In this document: positions 3,382-24,046 of the stretch, piece after piece | Numbering within the stretch: position 1 is the stretch's first letter | How the letters are laid out: each line of letters begins with the position of its first letter | Notes under the pieces: model-generated | What the model was told of the DNA's origin: nothing | The model's input: the letters and a program-made list of their open reading frames with translations, nothing else | Databases searched by the model: none | Program-made: the position numbers and the translations under genes | DNA from: an uncultured Oscillospiraceae bacterium | GTDB lineage: Bacteria > Bacillota > Clostridia > Oscillospirales > Oscillospiraceae | Reading direction: 5' to 3' | DNA length: 28,219 nt | Assembly (NCBI GenBank): GCA_964415275.1 | Contig: CAYPZF010000002.1 | Span: 1 to 28,219 of the forward strand

Positions 3382-3960
3382 CTATAAAAACAGGGAGACG
3401 GCACAGTAGACCAGCAGCAGTGCCATCACGGTGTTGATTGCCCGGCCGTGGTTGGCGAACAGCCGGTAGAGCGCCGTGCCGAAGAGGGACCAGCACACCG
3501 TGGCCGACGCGCTGGCCGTCGCCAACAGGAGGGCAAAGCCCAGCAAGGCGGCGGGGGCCTGGTAGTAGGGCAGGATGTACGAGGTCATGGCAGTGAGGCC
3601 GAAAATCAGGTTTTTAGGGTTGACCAACTGGAGGAGCACGCCGGAGAGAAAGGACGCCTCGCCCGTCCGGTCCGTGCTGCCGGGGGTGCTGCGGAAAATC
3701 CGCCAGGCCAAGTAGAGCATATAGGCCGCGCCCAGGGTCATCAGCACCGGTTTGACTTTGGGGACCCAGGTGTACAGCATCTTGCCAAACAGGGCGCAGG
3801 ACGACATCGTGAAGGTGCCCCCCACGAACACGCCCAGGTTAAAGGGATAGCTGCGCCGGAAGCCCAGTCTGCCCCCAAAACTCATGGAGAGCAGGTTGTT
3901 GGGCCCCGGTGTGTAAGCCATGATAAACGCGTAAGTAAGAAGTGTCGGCCACTGGAACAT
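3382..3960 (-). CDS. LysE/RhtB-family amino-acid exporter (EamB-like)
   Basis: 192 aa and hydrophobic, with YTPGPNN, GAAYMLYLAW and QLVNPK family motifs. Confidence 0.88.
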   Translation of the reverse strand: MFQWPTLLTYAFIMAYTPGPNNLLSMSFGGRLGFRRSYPFNLGVFVGGTFTMSSCALFGKMLYTWVPKVKPVLMTLGAAYMLYLAWRIFRSTPGSTDRTGEASFLSGVLLQLVNPKNLIFGLTAMTSYILPYYQAPAALLGFALLLATASASATVCWSLFGTALYRLFANHGRAINTVMALLLVYCAVSLFL

Positions 3961-9198: not shown

Positions 9199-11106
9199 TT
9201 AAAGTGGCCAGGAAGGCAGCCATCGGAGAATACAGGTCGAAAACCCCGCCGGGATGGGGATGCCGATGAGCACCGGGTAGAACAGGCCGTAGAGCCCCGC
9301 GTTGAGACCCGTGACGCCGTAAACCGGCAGACGCCAGCGGCCTTGGGGCCGCTCCATCAGATCGTTCATCAGGCTGGCGATGCCCAGCGCCAGAAAGAGC
9401 GTGGCGGGAAAGTAGTGGTAGGCGAAGGTGGGGCGGCTGATGGGCAGCCAGGGCAGCAGCTGGGCCAGATAGCCCACCAGAAGGAACAGCGCGGTGCCGG
9501 AGCGAAACCGCACGGCCTTGATGGCCATGGCCCCCATGCACAGCAGGCCCAGCCAGCTCACCACCGGGTTGTTGAAGGCGGCGAAGGCGGACTTGAGACC
9601 GGCGGCGGTGTGCTCACGGTAGTACAGAATGGGGCGGAGGTCCAGCATCCACTGCCACCACTTGGAGGCGTACGGGTGGGTGGCGTCCACCCCCCTGTGG
9701 TAGGTGAACATGAACTTCTGGTTCTCCCACACGATAGTGAGCAGGTTGGACAGGCTGGTGTCCCCCCTGGCCTGGGCGTAGGGGAGGTAGGCGACCACAT
9801 AGACGCACAGGGGGAGGACCACGAAGGCCAGGACGGAGAACAGGACGGTCTTTCCCGCCCAGGAGGCGAAGGTGGGGCCCGTCAGCTCCCCGGGCCAGTC
9901 ACGGCGCTTCTGCCACAGGTTGACAGCGTAGAGGACGGCCATGCCCGCGCCGCCGTAGAGCACCGTCCACTTACAGGCCGCGCCGAGACCGAACATCAGC
10001 CCCGAGAGCAGAAGGGAGGGCGCGCACCGGCGAAACGGCGTGCCGGCGGGCAGGGACAAAAACCGCCACAGGAAAAAATACATGGCCAGCGTAAAAAAGA
10101 CCGCGTAGGTGTCAATGGTGGCGATGCGGGTCTGGGTCAGGTGCATGAAGTCGAAGGCGAACAGGCTGGTCCCGCACAGGGCCAGGGGGGTCTTTCCAAA
10201 GAGGTTCTTGAGAAAGAGGTAGAGCAGTGGCAGCATCAGCACCCCAAAGAGGGTCCCCACAAAGCGCCAGCCAAAGGGAGTCATGCCAAACGCCCGGATG
10301 CCCAGGCCGATGAGCAGCTTCCCCAGGGGCGGGTGGGAGACCTCGTAGGGGTAGACCCCCCGGATATGCTCATAGGCGGTGCGGGCGTGGTAGATCTCGT
10401 CAAAATAGGAGGAGGTGAGATAGGAGCGCTCCGCCGGGATGACCTCCTGCTCGTCGAACAGGGCGTCCGCCCCGGCAACCCCGATGCCGCCCGGCGAGAG
10501 GTCCAAAAGGGCGGGCTGTGTCCCGCCGTCCGCCGTTCCGTACAGGGCCAGCTCGCCCAGCTCCAGACTGTCCTTTAGCGCGGTGAGACGGAGGTACCGC
10601 GCCCGCATGGGGGTGAGGGGGGTCTTGTCCTCCCCCTCCAGGGTCTGCCACTTAAAGAGGGTGGCGTAGGTCTGCCGGATTCTGGGCAGGGCCTGCCAGG
10701 TTTGTCCGTCGGCGGAGGCCTCCAGCGTGTATTCGCCGGTCCCCAGGCCGGTGTAGTAGGTCACGCCGGTGAGGGTGACCTCCCGGTCCAGGGAGACGGT
10801 CACCTCAGACACATCGGCAAAGCTCTGGAAGGACTGGGGCGCGGCGCGCGCCCCCAGGCCCCAGAACGCGGAGAAGGCATACACCGCGGTGAGGAGGAGC
10901 AGGGGCAGCGCATCCCTCCGCTCCATGGGGTGGCGGGCGGCGGCAAAGCTCATCCGGGGGCTGATTACCCACTGCCGCACCCGCTCCAGCGCGGTAGGAC
11001 GGCACATGAGCTCGGACCACCAGTGGCTGAAAAATAAAAGCGCCACCGTAGCGGCCGCCAGGGGAAAGAGCAGGGTAGGGGTAATGTAAGCCGCGATTGC
11101 CTGCAT
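9199..11106 (-). CDS. GT-C (PMT/GT39-like) lipid-carrier-dependent glycosyltransferase with an inserted discoidin/F5-8-like domain
   Basis: YFDEIYH, HPPLGK, FGWR, RIATIDT, KW, HPYAS.WWQW and YHYFP motifs with many TM segments. A soluble beta-rich segment (YTLEASADGQTW...ARYLRL...LELGELALY) precedes the DE motif. Start at ATG 11106 after GAGGTG. Confidence 0.8.
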   Translation of the reverse strand: MQAIAAYITPTLLFPLAAATVALLFFSHWWSELMCRPTALERVRQWVISPRMSFAAARHPMERRDALPLLLLTAVYAFSAFWGLGARAAPQSFQSFADVSEVTVSLDREVTLTGVTYYTGLGTGEYTLEASADGQTWQALPRIRQTYATLFKWQTLEGEDKTPLTPMRARYLRLTALKDSLELGELALYGTADGGTQPALLDLSPGGIGVAGADALFDEQEVIPAERSYLTSSYFDEIYHARTAYEHIRGVYPYEVSHPPLGKLLIGLGIRAFGMTPFGWRFVGTLFGVLMLPLLYLFLKNLFGKTPLALCGTSLFAFDFMHLTQTRIATIDTYAVFFTLAMYFFLWRFLSLPAGTPFRRCAPSLLLSGLMFGLGAACKWTVLYGGAGMAVLYAVNLWQKRRDWPGELTGPTFASWAGKTVLFSVLAFVVLPLCVYVVAYLPYAQARGDTSLSNLLTIVWENQKFMFTYHRGVDATHPYASKWWQWMLDLRPILYYREHTAAGLKSAFAAFNNPVVSWLGLLCMGAMAIKAVRFRSGTALFLLVGYLAQLLPWLPISRPTFAYHYFPATLFLALGIASLMNDLMERPQGRWRLPVYGVTGLNAGLYGLFYPVLIGIPIPAGFSTCILRWLPSWPL

Positions 11107-11132
11107 GACACACCTCACAGCAAATAGTAAAA

Positions 11133-13180: not shown

Positions 13181-15526
13181 CTAGGGCGTGACGGTGGTGC
13201 CCAGGGCCTTTTGGGCGATGGCCTCCAGCAGCAGGGCGTGCTCCACCCGGCCGTCCAGCACCACCACGGTGCCCACCCCATGGGCCACGGCATGGACACA
13301 CCCCTTCACCTTGGGCACCATGCCCCCCGCGATGAGCCCGGCGTCCAGCAGCTCCCTGGCCCGGGCCTGGTCCATGTGGGGAATGCGGGTGGCCTGATTG
13401 TGGTGGTCCACCAGAATGCCGTTGGTGTCGGTGAGAAAGACCAGCTTGTGGGCGGCCATTGCCTCGGCCACGGCCCGGGCCGCGTCGTCGGCGTTGCAGT
13501 TGAGGCCGCCCTCCGGCCCCAGGGCGATGGGGGAAACTACGGGCAAGAAGCCGTTGTCCAGCAGGGTGTGGAGCACCTTGGTGTCCACCCCGGTGATCTC
13601 TCCCACCCGGCCCAAGGCCGGGTCCTTGCAGCGGGCGGTGAGCCCCACGGCGGAGACCCCCAGGGTGCCCAGGGCGGCCACGATGCCCTTGTTCACCTGG
13701 GCGGAGAGAACCATCTCAGCGCAGTCCAGGACGGTCTCGTCGGTGACCCGATAGCCGTCCACAAAGGCGGTTTCCACCCCCAGCCTGTCCAGCAGGGCGG
13801 AGATGTCCTTGCCGCCGCCGTGGACCAGCACCACCCGGGCGCCCACCTGGTGCAGGGCGGCCACGTCCCGCAAGATGCTGTCCGCCGCGCCGGAGGGCCC
13901 CAGGGCGCTGCCGCCGTACTTGAGGACAAGGGTCTTGCCGGTGTACCCCCGCAGGACGGGCAGCACATCCAGAAACCCCCGCACCTTCTCCATGCCGTCC
14001 AGCCCGTGGGCGACGTCGTACGCGTGGAGAAAGGTCTTTGTATATTCTACATCGGAAGGACACTCGATATACACAAGGCCCCGCTTTTGTCGGGTCTCGG
14101 CCCCCTTGCCGGTGATGAGGACAACGGTGGGAGTCTCACAGCCCAGGATGGCCTGGCGGATGGCCTGGCCCCGGTGGGGCTGAATGGAGTAGTCGCAGCC
14201 CTCGGCCTCCACCCAGGCGGCAATCTCCCGGCAGATGGCCTCGGTGTCCTCCTCCCCCGAGTCCTCCTCGGTGAGGATGACCAGGTCGGAGTATCGGCCC
14301 GAAATCTCCCCCAGGTCCCGCCGGCGGTCCAGGGCCTTTTTGCCGGGGCAGCCAAAGACGGTGACGATGCGGCGGCCAGGGTACTCCTCTAGCGTGGACT
14401 GAAACAGCTTCTCAAAGGAGAGCCGGTTGTGGGCGTAGTCTACAATGGCGATGACCCGGTCGTCGGCGTTGGTGTAAATCTCCATTCGGCCGGGCACCCG
14501 TGCCTTCATGAGCCCCACGTAGATGGCCTGCTCCGGGATGCCCAGCCCCTCGCACACGGCGATGGCGGCCAGGGCGTTCTGCACATTGAAGAGGCCGGGC
14601 ATGGTGAGCCGGAATTCCCGGCTGTACCGCAGGGTCTTGACCCGGAAGAGGATGTCGTTGCCGCTCTTGCGCACGTTGGAGCCGTACACCGTGGCGCCCG
14701 GGTCGGTCTGGGAGAAGGTAATCACCCGGGGGCAGCGGCGGGCGGCCGCCAGCACCCGGTCGGCGTGGTCGCTGTCCAGGTTGACGCAGGCCAGGCCGGT
14801 CTGCTGGAAAATTCGCAGCTTGGAGGCAAAATAGTCCTCAAAATCCGGGTGCTCAATGGGGGAGACGTGGTCGTACCCGATGTTCAAAAAGACGGCGGCG
14901 GCGAACTCCACGCCCAGGACCCGGCCGTACTTGAGGCCCTGACTGGAGACCTCCATGGTGAGGTATTCCATCCCCGCGGAGACGCCGTTGGCAAAATGAC
15001 GCGCCAGATCCAGGGGCTCCGGCGTGGTGAGGTGGCTCTCAAAGCGCTCCACCCCGTCGTAGGTGTCAATAGAGCCGATGACGCCGCTCTCGGCCTTCCC
15101 CGCGCCCGCGGCGTATTCGTCAAAGATATACTTGAGATAGTAGGAGGTGGAGGATTTGCCCTTGGTGCCGGTGACCCCCACCACATTAAGCCGGCCGCTG
15201 GGGTGGTTGTAGTAGAAGCCGGCCAGCAGGGCCATGGCCCTGCGCACGTCGTTGACCAGCAGACAGGGGGCCCCCCCGGCCTCGGGATACGGGTGGTCGG
15301 CCAGGTAGAAAAACGCGCCCTTGCGGAGAGCGTCGGCCAGATAGGCCCCCTTGAAGTGGGCCCCCTTGCAGATGAACAGGGTGCCGGGGACCACCTGCCG
15401 GGAGTCGCAGGAGACCAGCGTAACCGGGCGGGCCAGGTCGGCGGCCGGAGGGGCCCCGCCTGTGAGCAGGCCCTCCCGCAGCAGCAGCTGGTAGTAATCG
15501 CCCAGGGTATGATAGTTCTGGTCCAT
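13181..15526 (-). CDS. MurE-type UDP-MurNAc-tripeptide synthetase fused in frame to a C-terminal acetylglutamate kinase (ArgB) domain, 781 aa
   Basis: MurE part: DSRQV.PGTLF, VTGTKGKSS, TTPE, MEVSS, FLN...DH, PGRME, VDYAHN and LITGKG. ArgB part from about 13993: LKYGGS, VHGGG, GYRVTD, NADDAA, LTD, GGMVPKV and HALLLE. No stop lies between them. Start at ATG 15526 after AGAGGT. Confidence 0.9.
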   Translation of the reverse strand: MDQNYHTLGDYYQLLLREGLLTGGAPPAADLARPVTLVSCDSRQVVPGTLFICKGAHFKGAYLADALRKGAFFYLADHPYPEAGGAPCLLVNDVRRAMALLAGFYYNHPSGRLNVVGVTGTKGKSSTSYYLKYIFDEYAAGAGKAESGVIGSIDTYDGVERFESHLTTPEPLDLARHFANGVSAGMEYLTMEVSSQGLKYGRVLGVEFAAAVFLNIGYDHVSPIEHPDFEDYFASKLRIFQQTGLACVNLDSDHADRVLAAARRCPRVITFSQTDPGATVYGSNVRKSGNDILFRVKTLRYSREFRLTMPGLFNVQNALAAIAVCEGLGIPEQAIYVGLMKARVPGRMEIYTNADDRVIAIVDYAHNRLSFEKLFQSTLEEYPGRRIVTVFGCPGKKALDRRRDLGEISGRYSDLVILTEEDSGEEDTEAICREIAAWVEAEGCDYSIQPHRGQAIRQAILGCETPTVVLITGKGAETRQKRGLVYIECPSDVEYTKTFLHAYDVAHGLDGMEKVRGFLDVLPVLRGYTGKTLVLKYGGSALGPSGAADSILRDVAALHQVGARVVLVHGGGKDISALLDRLGVETAFVDGYRVTDETVLDCAEMVLSAQVNKGIVAALGTLGVSAVGLTARCKDPALGRVGEITGVDTKVLHTLLDNGFLPVVSPIALGPEGGLNCNADDAARAVAEAMAAHKLVFLTDTNGILVDHHNQATRIPHMDQARARELLDAGLIAGGMVPKVKGCVHAVAHGVGTVVVLDGRVEHALLLEAIAQKALGTTVTP

Positions 15527-15594
15527 AACTGCACCTCTCTTCCCGTGACAGACGGGGCGCTTGGCCGCCGGCCCCGCACCCCCTTGCCTGTGGC

Positions 15595-16305
15595 TCACAC
15601 TGTCCGCAGGCGTTTGCCGCAGAAGGTGATGGCCTTCTCCACCAGCACCTCCATGGCGTCGATGTAAAAATCGGGCAGACCGTGGTACACCCGGTAGACC
15701 GACAGCTCCGTGCAGCCCAGAATGGCGCTGTCACAGCCCTGGCTCCGCAGGCTGCGGTCGATGGCGGTGAACTTCTCCCGGCTGCCCTTTTCCCCTTTTT
15801 TAATCTCGTCATAGATGACGGCCATAATAAGGCGCTGGGTCTCCGGGTCGGGGGCCACGGGGGTGAGGCCCTGGGCCTGGCAGGCCCGCTGGTACACCCC
15901 GGTCTGGATGGTGCCGTCGGTGGCCAAAATGCCCACCCGGCGGCGGCCGCGGGCGGCCAGGGCCGCGGTGGCCTCCCGCACCATATTGAGAATCGGCACG
16001 TCCACCGCCGCCTGGAGCCTGTCCACAAAATAGTGGGAGGTGTTGCAGGGGATGGCGATGGCGGTGCAGCCGCAGCCGGCCAGAAGGTTAGCGTTGTCCA
16101 GCAGACGGCTGTAGACCACTTCGCCCCGGCCGCTCAAAATGTACTCCGTGCGGTCCGGCATCTCGGTGTCGCTCAAAATCAAGACGGGCAGGTGTTCCTG
16201 GTCGCGGGCGGCCTCGGTCCGGTCTAAAATCCGCTGGTAGAAGATCTGGGTGGCCTGGGGGCCCATGCCGCCGATGACGCCCAGCCGGGCGGTTGGCTCT
16301 GTCAT
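15595..16305 (-). CDS. Aspartate/glutamate racemase family protein, probably aspartate racemase (RacD-like)
   Basis: LGVIGGMGP.AT, DQEH, PDRT, and two catalytic Cys motifs (IPCNTSHYF, LGCTELS). Confidence 0.9.
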   Translation of the reverse strand: MTEPTARLGVIGGMGPQATQIFYQRILDRTEAARDQEHLPVLILSDTEMPDRTEYILSGRGEVVYSRLLDNANLLAGCGCTAIAIPCNTSHYFVDRLQAAVDVPILNMVREATAALAARGRRRVGILATDGTIQTGVYQRACQAQGLTPVAPDPETQRLIMAVIYDEIKKGEKGSREKFTAIDRSLRSQGCDSAILGCTELSVYRVYHGLPDFYIDAMEVLVEKAITFCGKRLRTV

Positions 16306-16314
16306 AACTGCTCC

Positions 16315-17526
16315 TTACTCGGGCCGGTGGTAGTGCTTTTTAAACTTGTAATAGTGACCCAGTTGATTTTTAAGAAGGCGCAGCTTGCTCCGCGCCCCCT
16401 GGTTGGCGGGCCCGTACTTCAGGGCGTTGTGATAGGCCCCGGCCTTGACCAGGGCGCGCATCTCCTGGTGATAGCGGCTGGGGGTGTACCGGTAGGCCAC
16501 CCCCAGGGGCACCATGGTCCAGAGGGAGCGGCCGCAGGCCATCACCGGCTCCAGGTCCCGGCCCAGGACCCGGTCCTCCACCAAAAGCCGGGCGATGTTG
16601 TGTCCGGCGCCGGTGACGTAGTAATTGCTGCGCCCTTGGCGGCAGTTGATTTCAAACACCTTATAGGTTCCGTCGCGCTGGTCGAATTTAAGGTCGAAAT
16701 TGGAGAAGCCGGTGAACTGTACCGCCTCCAGAAATCCGCGCAGCCGGCCGCACAGCGCGTCGTTGGTCTCGGTGAGGATGACCGCGTGGTTGCCGATGCC
16801 GTGGGGAGTGTGCTCCTCCAGCAGGACGTGGCCCAGACACATGAGCTTCACCTGGCTGTTCCGGTCGGAATAGCAGGTGAGCACCCGCATGTAGCTGTCG
16901 TCCCCGGGGATGAAGTCCTGGATGACCATGGAGTCGTCGTACCCCGAGGCGTAGACTTTGTCCAGCACCTCCTCCAGCTCCGCCCGGTCCCGGCAGATAA
17001 AGACCTTTTTGTTCCCCTCAAAGGGGTGGTCCCAGTAGGCCACGCCGTTAGAGGGCTTGCAGACGAAGGGGGGCGGGAAGGGGAGGGTGAAGCCGCGCCC
17101 CATCTCGGCCCGGTGGATGAAGGTGTCGGGGTAGTCGATGCCCATCTGGTCGCACAGGGCGTAAAACCGCTCCTTGTGGATCAGGGTGTTGATGAGGGCG
17201 CCGGGCGCGTAGGGCGCCACGCAGTTGGCGGGGAAGTCCTCCTTGTGCTCGGCGCAGAGCTTTACATAGCTGTCCCCGCAGCCGATGACCAGAATGGTCT
17301 TGTCCGGGTGGGCGGCGGCCACATCGGCCACATTCCCGCAGAATACGGCGGCCTCCTCGTTCTCCGGACAGACGCGGTAGTCAATGATGGCGTTGTCATA
17401 GGCGGGGCCGGAGGGGAACTTGCCGTAACAGATGGAGCGCATGCCGTAGGCCTCGTGAAAGGCGCGGGCCACGCTGTAGACATTGATATCCCCTCCAAAC
17501 AGGAGGGGCAGGAAGTTCAGGTCCAT
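16315..17526 (-). CDS. ATP-grasp carboxylate-amine ligase, D-aspartate ligase (Asl/YxbA) type
   Basis: N-terminal PLLFGGDINVYSVARAFHEAYG, GCGD.YV, KPSN, QDFIPGDD, LLEEH.P..IGN, DLKFD.RDG.YK.FEINCRQGRS.YY. These are ATP-grasp metal/ATP motifs plus the N-terminus I recognise from D-Asp ligases, and the gene sits next to an Asp racemase. Confidence 0.8.
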   Translation of the reverse strand: MDLNFLPLLFGGDINVYSVARAFHEAYGMRSICYGKFPSGPAYDNAIIDYRVCPENEEAAVFCGNVADVAAAHPDKTILVIGCGDSYVKLCAEHKEDFPANCVAPYAPGALINTLIHKERFYALCDQMGIDYPDTFIHRAEMGRGFTLPFPPPFVCKPSNGVAYWDHPFEGNKKVFICRDRAELEEVLDKVYASGYDDSMVIQDFIPGDDSYMRVLTCYSDRNSQVKLMCLGHVLLEEHTPHGIGNHAVILTETNDALCGRLRGFLEAVQFTGFSNFDLKFDQRDGTYKVFEINCRQGRSNYYVTGAGHNIARLLVEDRVLGRDLEPVMACGRSLWTMVPLGVAYRYTPSRYHQEMRALVKAGAYHNALKYGPANQGARSKLRLLKNQLGHYYKFKKHYHRPE

Positions 17527-17714
17527 GAAAACGACACCTCAAACCAGGTTTTTTGACCCCGGACCGGAACGCCGGCCAGAGGGGCCAGGCGGGCGGCGGG
17601 GTGAGCGGCGCGGAGATAATCGGCCTCCTCCCGGGAGAGCCGCAGCTCCCGGCGGACGCGCTCCCCACCCCGGAAGGCGGCGGAAAGCATGGCCTCGAAG
17701 GACAAAACATCCAT
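17517..17714 (-). CDS. Small hypothetical protein, 65 aa
   Basis: ATG 17714 follows GGGGAGA. It fills the gap between rel and the ligase in the same orientation and overlaps the ligase start by 10 nt. Sequence: MDVLSFEAMLSAAFRGGERVRRELRLSREEADYLRAAHP...KTWFEVSFSWT. Confidence 0.65.
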   Translation of the reverse strand: MDVLSFEAMLSAAFRGGERVRRELRLSREEADYLRAAHPAARLAPLAGVPVRGQKTWFEVSFSWT

Positions 17715-22201: not shown

Positions 22202-24046
22202 CTATTTTGACCCGCTTGAGGAGGCGTAATAATCCGAGAGCAGTATTTTCCGGGAAATCTCAAATGTTTCGGCCATTTTGGCGGCCTGCCGGGAGGCGTA
22301 GTCCTGATCGGGGCAGTCCCCGTTTTTGCTGTACCATGCGCCGTCATACCAGGTGCCGTCGGAGAAAAAGACGCAGCGCGCCTCCGGGGAGAACAGGTCT
22401 ATGCCCGCATACCACGCCTCCGCGGCATCCAGCCCGAACAGGTTGACCAGGGTGGGCAGCAGGTCGGCGCTGGAGCTCACCTCCTCCACCTTCCGGGGCG
22501 TCAGGTCCGCGGCGTAGAGGAAAAGCGGCGTGCGCTGGAGCAGGTTCATGTCGTAGACGTCCTTATACTGCATGACCAGAGCGTCGTTCATGACGTAGTA
22601 GTTGTAGTGGTCCGCGTAGAAGACCACCACCGTGTTCTCCAGCAGGCCGTCGGCCTCCAGCCGGTCAAAGAGGGCCCCCACGAACAGGTCGGTCTCCCGG
22701 GCGTGGGCCATGGCGTGGAGAAACACGTCGTCGGTGCCGGGGTAGAGGGCCTTCATTTCCTCATAGTGGACCGAGGAGGACGCCGCGTCGGTATAGGGCC
22801 CATGGCCGGAATAGGTGATGACAAAGCTGAAAAAGGGCGACGCGCCGGTCATGAGGTCATATCCCTCCATCAGCTGGCTGTCCGCGGTAAAGTCGGCCAT
22901 GCCCAGGTCGGCGCCGCTGTGGTATGTATAGCCCCAGTTGGCGTGTATGTCGCCCCGGTTGTACACCGAGCCCGGGCTGCCGTGGAAGGAGCGCGCCGTA
23001 TACCCCGCCGCCTGAAACAGGTGGGCCAGAGAATAGGGCATCTCGGCCTGGGCGTACGCGTCCACCGGCACGCCGGAGCGGGGCGGAATGAGGCCGGTGT
23101 TCACGATGAACTCGGTGTTAAAGGTGCCCGCCGTGATGTACGCCGGTGTGTAGTGCGCGGTAAAATCCAGGGCGTTCTCCCGGATGTTGTAGAGACTGGG
23201 CATGGTCTGCTCGTTGAGCATCCAGGTGTCGATGGCCTCCAGCTGAATGAGCAGGAGGTTGCGGCCGGCGAGGGCGCCGGTCATCTCGTTGCCCCCGGCG
23301 GCGGGCAGGGCGCCAAACACCGTGGCGGCCAGCTCCTCCCGCAGGCCGTCGGGCTGCTCCCCAAAGGGGTTCACCGTCCGCCACAGGTCCCGGAAGGTGT
23401 ACTGGTACAGGCCCGCCTTACAGAGGCTCTTCTTGGTGTCCATAAAATTGGCGTAGGCGCTGCCGCCCCCGTCCCAGACCACCACGTCGTAGTCCTTCAT
23501 CAGGGTCTGGTGGAGGGGGAGGACGCAGAGAATCCCCACAACCGCGCCCGCCCCGGCGGCCACGAGCCGCTGGGGGAGGGGCCTGGCCTGTCCCCCTTTA
23601 GGGGACAGAAGCGCGGCCGCCGCCATGGTGAGCAGGGCCAGCAGCACCAGGAGGAGGGTCCGCTTGGGGATCTGAATATAGGACAGGTCGGCAAACGCCG
23701 CCCCGTCCCCGGCAAAGCCCAGATCGGAGAAGGCGAAAAACCGGTTGAAAAGGTTGAGCAGCGTGCCGTGGGCCAGGGTGAGCACGCCGAACAACAGGAT
23801 GGTGGCAATCAGGTAGACCTTGCGGGCCCGTCCGGGCAGGAGGACGGCCACCGCGGTCAGAATCAGGCTCCAGCCCACGCCGAACAGCACGGGGGCGGGG
23901 TCCCGCAGGGGGACGCCGCCATACGCGTGGTAGATGAGCTGGAACCCCAGGGCAAGTCCCACATAAGACGCAAGGCACAGGAGAAGCCAGGCCTGCCGCA
24001 GCCCGGTCCCCTGTGCCGCGCGGGGACGCTGTTTGAATCGGCTCAA
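22202..24046 (-). CDS. LTA synthase / alkaline-phosphatase-superfamily membrane sulfatase-like protein
   Basis: N-terminal TM bundle, then an extracellular domain with QLEA (metal Glu), AGTFNTEF (catalytic Thr position), [12 protein letters not shown] and PT..NLFG. The TTG start overlaps the glyQS TGA. Confidence 0.8.

Follow-up and report, generated by a model that had tools for sequence, protein, structure and literature searches.

A candidate D-aspartate cross-bridge cassette with a MurE-ArgB fusion in an Oscillospiraceae bacterium and its clostridial relatives

Results

We analyzed a stretch of 28,219 nucleotides (nt) from an uncultured Oscillospiraceae bacterium (contig CAYPZF010000002.1 of assembly GCA_964415275.1; the whole stretch is hereafter called the window) and found that it carries a predicted D-aspartate (D-Asp) ligase gene, an aspartate racemase gene, and a gene for a MurE ligase fused to ArgB, the N-acetylglutamate kinase (NAGK) of ornithine synthesis. 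The locus is probably a cytoplasmic precursor cassette for A4-type peptidoglycan. Ligase-racemase pairs are already known, as are the classical A4alpha and A4beta walls; the D-aspartate ligase (EC 6.3.1.12) and the aspartate racemase are called Aslfm and Racfm in Enterococcus faecium and AslA and RacD in Lactococcus lactis. As the original prediction had claimed, four open reading frames (ORFs) of the same orientation lie close together on the minus strand at 13181-17714 of the window, and the ORF listing reproduced the spacing of -10, 9, and 68 nt between the small ORF, the ligase, the racemase, and the MurE-ArgB genes (Table 1).

This arrangement is far from chance, and it recurs in Intestinimonas butyriciproducens, where the order is recJ-relA-small ORF-ligase-racemase-(helix-turn-helix insert)-MurE/ArgB-M16, and in most of 80 loci that were obtained by scanning one genome per GTDB species, calling ORFs, and comparing them with the window proteins. 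In the 66 loci in which the sequence continued downstream of the ligase gene for 3 kb or more, the ligase was followed by a racemase in 59, by a MurE on the same strand in 59, and by both in order in 55. The trio was also found outside Oscillospiraceae with unrelated flanks, namely in Clostridium aminobutyricum (gaps, 6 and 17 nt; MurE unfused), in Sinanaerobacter, and in metagenome-assembled genomes (MAGs) labeled Family XIII and Peptostreptococcaceae; in a Syntrophomonadaceae MAG (L086), MurE lies on the opposite strand. Further, 22 of the 80 loci (e.g. L040:8516-9967, L045, L038, and L034) have an alanine racemase gene (Ala_racemase_N and Ala_racemase_C) immediately before the ligase gene and in the same orientation, giving the order alr-asl-racD-murE, whereas the window has relA upstream and no alr. 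Between genera, MurE is 61-76% identical, compared with 63-79% for RelA, which is the level to be expected of a core gene. Wide conservation thus holds for a unit of three genes (ligase, racemase, and MurE), and the four-gene module that had originally been proposed stood only for this trio: the small ORF was detected in about 9 of the 80 loci, and an intact ArgB was carried by 21 of the 65 MurEs that are linked to the ligase gene.

The 403-aa ligase had no Pfam match and no sequence match in the PDB. Its AlphaFold model has an ATP-grasp fold (predicted local distance difference test score, 88; predicted template modeling score, 0.87), which Foldseek matched with a probability of 1.0 to the ATP-grasp enzymes 3VOT, 1A9X, 4WD3, and 4FFL. 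The nearest folds are L-amino-acid (dipeptide) ligases (3VOT and RizA among the matches), modules of carbamoyl-phosphate synthetase, and PylC, which acylates the side-chain amine of lysine with a D-amino acid. A tblastn search against a plasmid collection, in which the useful matches were chromosome-sized records mislabeled as plasmids, revealed genes 36-37% identical over 92-100% of the query in Latilactobacillus curvatus, Lactobacillus crispatus, and Limosilactobacillus fermentum, all of which we take to be classical Lys-D-Asp or Orn-D-Asp species. In the case of L. curvatus, presumably a Lys-D-Asp species, the identity is 37% across 98% of the length of the window ligase, and the gene directly follows aspS and an amino-acid racemase gene. 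The automatic naming of JGI calls many homologues "D-aspartate ligase", and the PGAP names are "ATP-grasp domain-containing protein" or "carboxylate-amine ligase".

An exhaustive representative search gave 2,914 clusters of ligase relatives at 50% identity. Among the best 150 of these clusters were single-chain fusions of the ligase with an Asp_Glu_race racemase (P0249 and P0263) as well as DegT-ligase-FemAB fusions. We regard these fusions as independent Rosetta-stone links of the ligase family to putative D-amino-acid supply and cross-bridge synthesis. Other members of the family are fused to a DegT-type aminotransferase or to a response-regulator receiver domain (the fusion set comprises P0249, P0263, P0295, P0305, P0319, and P0381). 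Overall, we predict the 403-aa protein to be a D-aspartate ligase whose acceptor would be the side-chain amine of stem residue 3.

The racemase belongs to the Asp_Glu_race family and scored 212 bits against TIGR00035, the cut-off of which is 93. Its best solved relative is the aspartate racemase of Pyrococcus horikoshii (1JFL; E value, 9.5e-45), with which both catalytic cysteine motifs, PCNTsH and GCTElS, were aligned, and it shares 40% identity with the racemase of L. curvatus along its full length. With homologues of both members of the L. curvatus pair and with the single-chain fusions described above, the predicted pairing of a D-aspartate ligase with its racemase held up well. We note that the racemase also exceeds the cut-off of the cysteate-racemase equivalog model NF052483 (CuyB), with 211 bits compared with 190. 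This model gave 185-189 bits to the racemases adjacent to the D-aspartate ligase genes of L. curvatus and C. aminobutyricum and ranged from 185 to 221 bits over aspartate-racemase neighbors of such genes. The CuyB model therefore barely separates cysteate from aspartate racemases, and such genes may be misnamed.

The third protein contains, in one chain, Mur_ligase_M and Mur_ligase_C followed by AA_kinase (Pfam), and it scored 296 bits against the TIGR01085 murE model (cut-off, 257). Like the MurE enzymes of Staphylococcus aureus (4C12; lysine type, motif DNPA), Escherichia coli (1E8C), and Mycobacterium tuberculosis (2WTZ; both DNPR), its MurE part is a three-domain Mur ligase with a P-loop, here an intact GVTGTKGKSS, and a GKGxE loop. 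The alignment to the solved Mur ligases is colinear over residues 20-483, and the domain aligns end to end with 2WTZ. In the HMMER alignment, tEEDSGeed of the window protein stands opposite tDDNPRded of 2WTZ so that DNPR is replaced by E-D-S-G. In other words, the window MurE differs from enzymes of the meso-diaminopimelic acid (DAP) type in that Asp-1, Asn-2, and Arg-4 of the motif have become Glu, Asp, and Gly, respectively, and His of GKGHE has become Ala. Of the DNPR residues, Asn and Arg bind the distal carboxylate of meso-DAP, and the first Asp holds the side-chain amine together with the Glu of the GKGxE loop; lysine-adding enzymes carry DNPA-like motifs (PMC3829189). With the Asn and Arg gone, the window MurE is, as judged by its motifs, not a meso-DAP-type enzyme, in agreement with the original proposal, and its pocket is strongly acidic.

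In a reference alignment, the motif is DNPR in Bacillus velezensis and in Subdoligranulum-type MurE, DDPA in Enterococcus faecalis, DDPG in L. curvatus, DDPD in Vescimonas, EDPA in Collinsella aerofaciens, EDPG in Intestinimonas, and EDSG in the window. Compared with the L-lysine motif D(D/N)P(N/A/G), the window MurE thus has Glu at the first position and Ser in place of Pro (Pro or Ala in relatives), with acidity retained. TEED[S/A/P]GEE was present in all of 120 fused homologues, in which GKGAETRQ was invariant. DNPR occurred in none of the 65 ligase-linked MurEs and TEEDxGEE in 58 of them; a few have TEDDPG, including a sub-group with the same synteny (Lawsonibacter hominis L080, L036, and L083).

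Within the plasmid collection, the MurE of Collinsella aerofaciens is the closest one from outside Oscillospiraceae (42-45% identity), with lower identity to the MurEs of lysine-type Firmicutes (34-37%) and to DNPR enzymes (about 31%). In a simple neighbor-joining tree, the Collinsella MurE is the sister of the ligase-linked clade, apart from the DNPR enzymes. It shares with the window MurE the Glu at the first motif position (EDPA and EDSG) and the Glu in the GKGxE loop but is unfused (520 aa), has asnB and murI as neighbors in place of asl and racD, and belongs to a different phylum. To judge by the entry in one review, which cites the C. aerofaciens transfer paper (Kageyama 1999), its wall is of the A4beta type (PMC11382707), and a relative of Collinsella, Olsenella uli, has an A4beta L-Orn-D-Asp wall (PMC3035265). 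The Asp that binds the amine in lysine enzymes (DDPA, DDPG, and DNPA) is Glu in both the window and the Collinsella MurE, and this swap could compensate for the side chain of ornithine being one methylene shorter. The murE of Limosilactobacillus fermentum, presumably an Orn-D-Asp species, was sought for this comparison and was not in the plasmid collection.

Two candidates that came up around the MurE comparison were rejected. Subdoligranulum variabile had appeared to combine a ligase-racemase-asnB locus with a DNPR MurE, but the loci need not share a genome: the ligase, racemase, and asparagine synthase of the contig concerned (L006, OY725879.1) are identical to proteins of Ruthenibacterium lactatiformans, indicating that the PLSDB assembly S. 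variabile TSDC17.2-1.1 is mixed or mislabeled. The Subdoligranulum-type DNPR MurE lies on a contig with the same assembly label (L009, OY725839.1), and several more of the "plasmids" that we drew on are pieces of chromosomes. The apparent 782-aa relatives of this DNPR MurE were likewise dismissed, as they are penicillin-binding proteins and not fusions.

The C-terminal part of the fusion scored 198 bits against the TIGR00761 argB model (cut-off, 151) and follows the MurE part without a linker. It aligns over its full length, N-helix included, with the hexameric arginine-sensitive NAGKs of Thermotoga maritima (2BTY), Synechococcus (2JJ4), and Pseudomonas aeruginosa (2BUF), and its catalytic motifs KYGG, HGGG, NCNAD, and GGMVPK are intact. 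On this basis, the domain is classed as a hexameric-type NAGK with an N-terminal helix and is most likely an active N-acetylglutamate kinase. Unlike those NAGKs, it is welded to the C terminus of a MurE, has relatives with dead versions, and has lost the aromatic residue of the N-helix (Tyr or Phe in LP[Y/F][I/L]), which is Val in the window and is replaced by non-aromatic residues in all of the most frequent variants of the 120 fused homologues (Leu, Ile, Ala, Thr, and Arg). We take this aromatic (Tyr-15 in the T. maritima enzyme) to be part of the arginine feedback site. More speculatively, arginine control of the fused ArgB may differ from that of known NAGKs.

The 21 intact ArgB fusions among the 65 ligase-linked MurEs include those of Evtepia gabavorous, Muriventricola aceti, Flavonifractor sp. 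An100, and Pseudoflavonifractor sp. An85; about 33 MurEs are unfused, and 8, each from a different GTDB species and downstream of the ligase and racemase, have a tail of 180-250 aa (L028, L030, L034 from Pseudoflavonifractor phocaeensis, L035, L046, L049, L053, and L055). The two tails that were tested are ArgB-derived (E values, 2e-27 and 2e-8). The tails are in frame and retain the N-helix and the last ~60 residues but lack KYGG, HGGG, NxNAD, and GGMxPK and have large internal deletions, features by which we classify them as catalytically dead ArgB pseudo-enzyme domains. That a dead domain has been retained points tentatively to a role other than catalysis.

The 65-aa protein had no Pfam or NCBIfam match. 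Intestinimonas has a 65-aa ORF in the equivalent position with 48% identity to it (E value, 7e-16), and the family shares the motif AFxGG..RRELRL..EA...W[YF]E; we consider the window ORF a real conserved small protein, although its distribution marks it as a lineage-restricted accessory. The small ORF and the ligase are both preceded by good Shine-Dalgarno sequences (that of the small ORF is GGGGAG, 7 nt upstream of the start) and are probably translationally coupled because the former overlaps the start of the latter by 10 nt.

Table 1. Coordinates of the cassette genes and of parts of the MurE-ArgB fusion in the window
Feature	Position	Strand	Remark
Small ORF, 65 aa	17517..17714	-	ATG at 17714; no Pfam or NCBIfam match
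ATP-grasp ligase, 403 aa	16315..17526	-	Predicted D-aspartate ligase (Asl-like)
PLP (pyridoxal phosphate)-independent aspartate racemase, 236 aa	15595..16305	-	Predicted D-Asp supplier
MurE-ArgB fusion, 781 aa from ATG	13181..15526	-	
MurE domain	14027..15526	-	Residues 1-500 of fusion protein
Codons E421-D422-S423-G424	14255..14266	-	DNPR-equivalent positions
ArgB (N-acetylglutamate kinase) domain	13181..14026	-	Residues 501-781 of fusion

An alternative GTG start at 15598 would give an 805-aa fusion with a 4-nt overlap with the stop codon of the racemase. No terminator-like sites were found between the genes, and a single hairpin match inside murE was no better than those in shuffled sequences; searches of the window for Rfam families, tRNAs, sigma-70-like promoters, and internal terminators gave nothing informative. 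The window has a G+C content of ~65%, and the overlapping ORFs on the opposite strand are therefore artifacts. The flanks are of a housekeeping kind, with gpr, a class II aminoacyl-tRNA synthetase, a lipoteichoic acid (LTA)-synthase-like sulfatase, recJ, and relA upstream and an M16 peptidase, a single-stranded DNA-binding protein, a PMT-type glycosyltransferase, a PHP protein, mnmA, and mnmG downstream. Given gpr, which encodes the spore germination protease, the source organism is probably a spore former. Two of the neighbors are further envelope genes, i.e. those of the PMT-family glycosyltransferase, which has an F5/8 type C domain (9199-11118, minus strand), and of the LTA-synthase-like sulfatase-domain protein (22202-24046, minus strand). 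A LysE-type basic-amino-acid exporter gene lies at 3382-3960 on the minus strand, about 9 kb from the module.

An asnB/asnH-like gene for the amidation of D-Asp is absent from the window and was present in 1 of the 80 loci. In R. lactatiformans, an asparagine synthase gene follows the ligase-racemase pair (L006:12043-13881 and L007:7910-9790); its product, which could amidate D-Asp to D-Asn, has 69% identity to the product of the asnB that adjoins murE in Collinsella aerofaciens, a member of a different phylum. This shared asnB is a hint that wall-type genes may have been exchanged between gut lineages.

Discussion

We propose that the non-DAP MurE would add a cationic diamino acid as stem residue 3, that the two-cysteine racemase would convert L-Asp to D-Asp, and that the ATP-grasp ligase would activate the beta-carboxyl of D-Asp and couple it to the free amine on the side chain of residue 3 in the nucleotide precursor, with the attached D-Asp (or D-Asn) serving as the cross-bridge. 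The fused ArgB would tie the second step of ornithine synthesis physically to MurE, the consumer of the diamino acid, and the 65-aa ORF would be a lineage-specific accessory. We infer every substrate, and the structure of the wall, from the gene order, domains, motif changes, homology, and co-conservation described above. The comparison with Asl/Rac systems, made via the L. curvatus pair, revealed the same combination of a ~400-aa ATP-grasp ligase beside a PLP-independent aspartate racemase, both cytoplasmic. The window differs from L. curvatus in that the pair forms an operon with MurE, whereas murE of L. curvatus is ~11 kb away, and from lactic acid bacteria in that the host is one of the high-GC Clostridia (Oscillospiraceae). 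The literature that was searched contained no report of this tight MurE operon, of its spread in Oscillospiraceae and other Clostridia, or of MurE-ArgB proteins with dead-ArgB derivatives.

Several observations weigh against the proposed cassette. The ligase is linked to the characterized enzymes of E. faecium and L. lactis indirectly, through lactobacillus orthologues that are uncharacterized and through automatic names. In three Intestinimonas loci (L019, L023, and L024), the ligase and small ORF follow relA and are succeeded by an alpha-amylase and an MFS transporter, with no racemase or MurE within 3-9 kb of the ligase. Further, wall chemistry or chemotaxonomic data for any carrier species were not found in the literature searched, which also yielded nothing about wall types in Intestinimonas, Flavonifractor, or Flintibacter or on L-Orn-D-Asp in clostridia. 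A role of the ligase and racemase outside peptidoglycan, for example in making a D-Asp-containing dipeptide or in modifying another polymer, with the adjacency to murE being operon economy, would fit the L-amino-acid (dipeptide) ligases as closest solved folds, weak NCBIfam matches of the ligase that include the Asp-Met ligase LdmS, and the passing of the CuyB model by the racemase. We nevertheless consider it very improbable: the CuyB model scores bona fide aspartate-racemase neighbors nearly equally, the homology to the lactobacillus racemase-ligase pair is full-length, FemAB fusions occur in the ligase family, and across families and contexts the two genes stay linked to murE, often with an alanine racemase gene as well. 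A more realistic possibility, although still not the one that we favor, is that a second, DNPR-type MurE makes DAP stems for the spore cortex or the main vegetative wall so that the wall is mixed or stage-specific, which would fit either ornithine or lysine at residue 3 in the cassette product. There is precedent for two enzymes in Lysinibacillus sphaericus: its vegetative wall is of the Lys-D-Asp type, and a separate adding enzyme serves the cortex, which contains DAP. The window also encodes Gpr. Other Oscillospiraceae have a DNPR MurE adjoining a penicillin-binding protein (L009/P0431), and Faecalibacterium is reported to contain meso-DAP (PMC11382707). On the other side, no second MurE was seen within the ~20 kb read per genome, and the ligase-linked MurE is kept in 59 of 66 loci and conserved like RelA, as fits an essential enzyme. 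Given the predicted sporulation and this possible second MurE, a "DAP-free" wall and its consequence for NOD1 are a conjecture.

Within the proposed cassette, we regard L-ornithine as somewhat more likely than L-lysine at residue 3, with lysine a substantial contender and any other residue improbable. Ornithine is favored because the fusion partner is an ornithine-pathway enzyme, because the MurE of Collinsella (A4beta, as far as the review entry goes) comes out as the sister, and because the Glu-for-Asp change gives a Glu/Glu pair at the amine-binding positions. The same cassette with L-lysine (A4alpha, L-Lys-D-Asp, the type usual in lactobacilli and enterococci), in which ArgB would be a housekeeping enzyme caught by a neutral fusion and irrelevant to the wall, is a tentative alternative that we think rather unlikely in this full form. 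It gains from A4alpha being far commoner than A4beta among characterized Gram-positive bacteria, from DDPG (L. curvatus) and DDPA (E. faecalis) being one conservative change from EDSG/EDPG, and from the TEDDPG sub-group, which indicates that the position is variable. The Orn pointers are, moreover, indirect: the Glu-for-Asp rule has one Orn-type comparator, and the MurE motif of Deinococcus, which we take to be Orn-type, differs. No further arg genes were found near the fusion. The choice of lysine by S. aureus MurE comes partly from substrate pools and not from the active site (PMC3829189), a caution for any reading of motifs. As to the fusion, it is confined to part of Oscillospiraceae and is neither universal nor always active; most ligase-linked MurEs of identical signature are unfused, about 33 of them carrying TEEDxGEE and GKGxETRQ, which speaks against ArgB as the determinant of residue 3, and the eight dead remnants together with these unfused relatives indicate that kinase activity is not required for the cassette. 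The earlier argument from the fusion to L-ornithine thus survives as a lead, given the intact motifs, and not as a determinant. Against lysine, a chance fusion to exactly an enzyme of the ornithine pathway is improbable, the ArgB motifs have been kept by selection across 120 homologues, and the nearest relative of known chemotype is, by the entry cited above, A4beta Collinsella and not a lysine-type Firmicute.

A bolder extension of the ornithine reading, which we put forward as doubtful, is that the ArgB domain is a regulatory or oligomerizing module that couples arginine/ornithine status to the MurE step, at which peptidoglycan precursor synthesis is committed to its diamino acid, and that a large clade of gut Oscillospiraceae (Intestinimonas, Flavonifractor, Pseudoflavonifractor, Lawsonibacter, and Evtepia) has L-Orn-D-Asp, NOD1-silent walls. 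Such a module would explain the linkerless weld, the replacement of the aromatic at the arginine site, and the retention of a dead domain in at least eight species. Either way, MurE-ArgB and its dead-ArgB derivatives would represent a metabolic enzyme recruited onto, or decaying on, a cell-wall enzyme.

The peptidoglycan chemistry of gut Oscillospiraceae is almost uncharacterized; a 2024 review gives "meso-DAP" for Faecalibacterium and has no entry for Oscillibacter (PMC11382707). The cassette predicts Orn/Lys-D-Asp walls in butyrate-producing commensals (Intestinimonas, Flavonifractor, Pseudoflavonifractor, Lawsonibacter, Evtepia, and Muriventricola) and in several other clostridial lineages, in contrast to the DAP wall that is usually assumed. 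PGAP names a 790-aa fusion "acetylglutamate kinase", so that MurE can be overlooked when these genomes are reconstructed automatically. If the prediction is true, the muropeptides of these bacteria would engage NOD2 and PGLYRP rather than NOD1, and different endolysins and hydrolases would be active on their walls. The value of the finding lies not in a new mechanism but in a concrete, testable prediction of wall type for abundant gut commensals.

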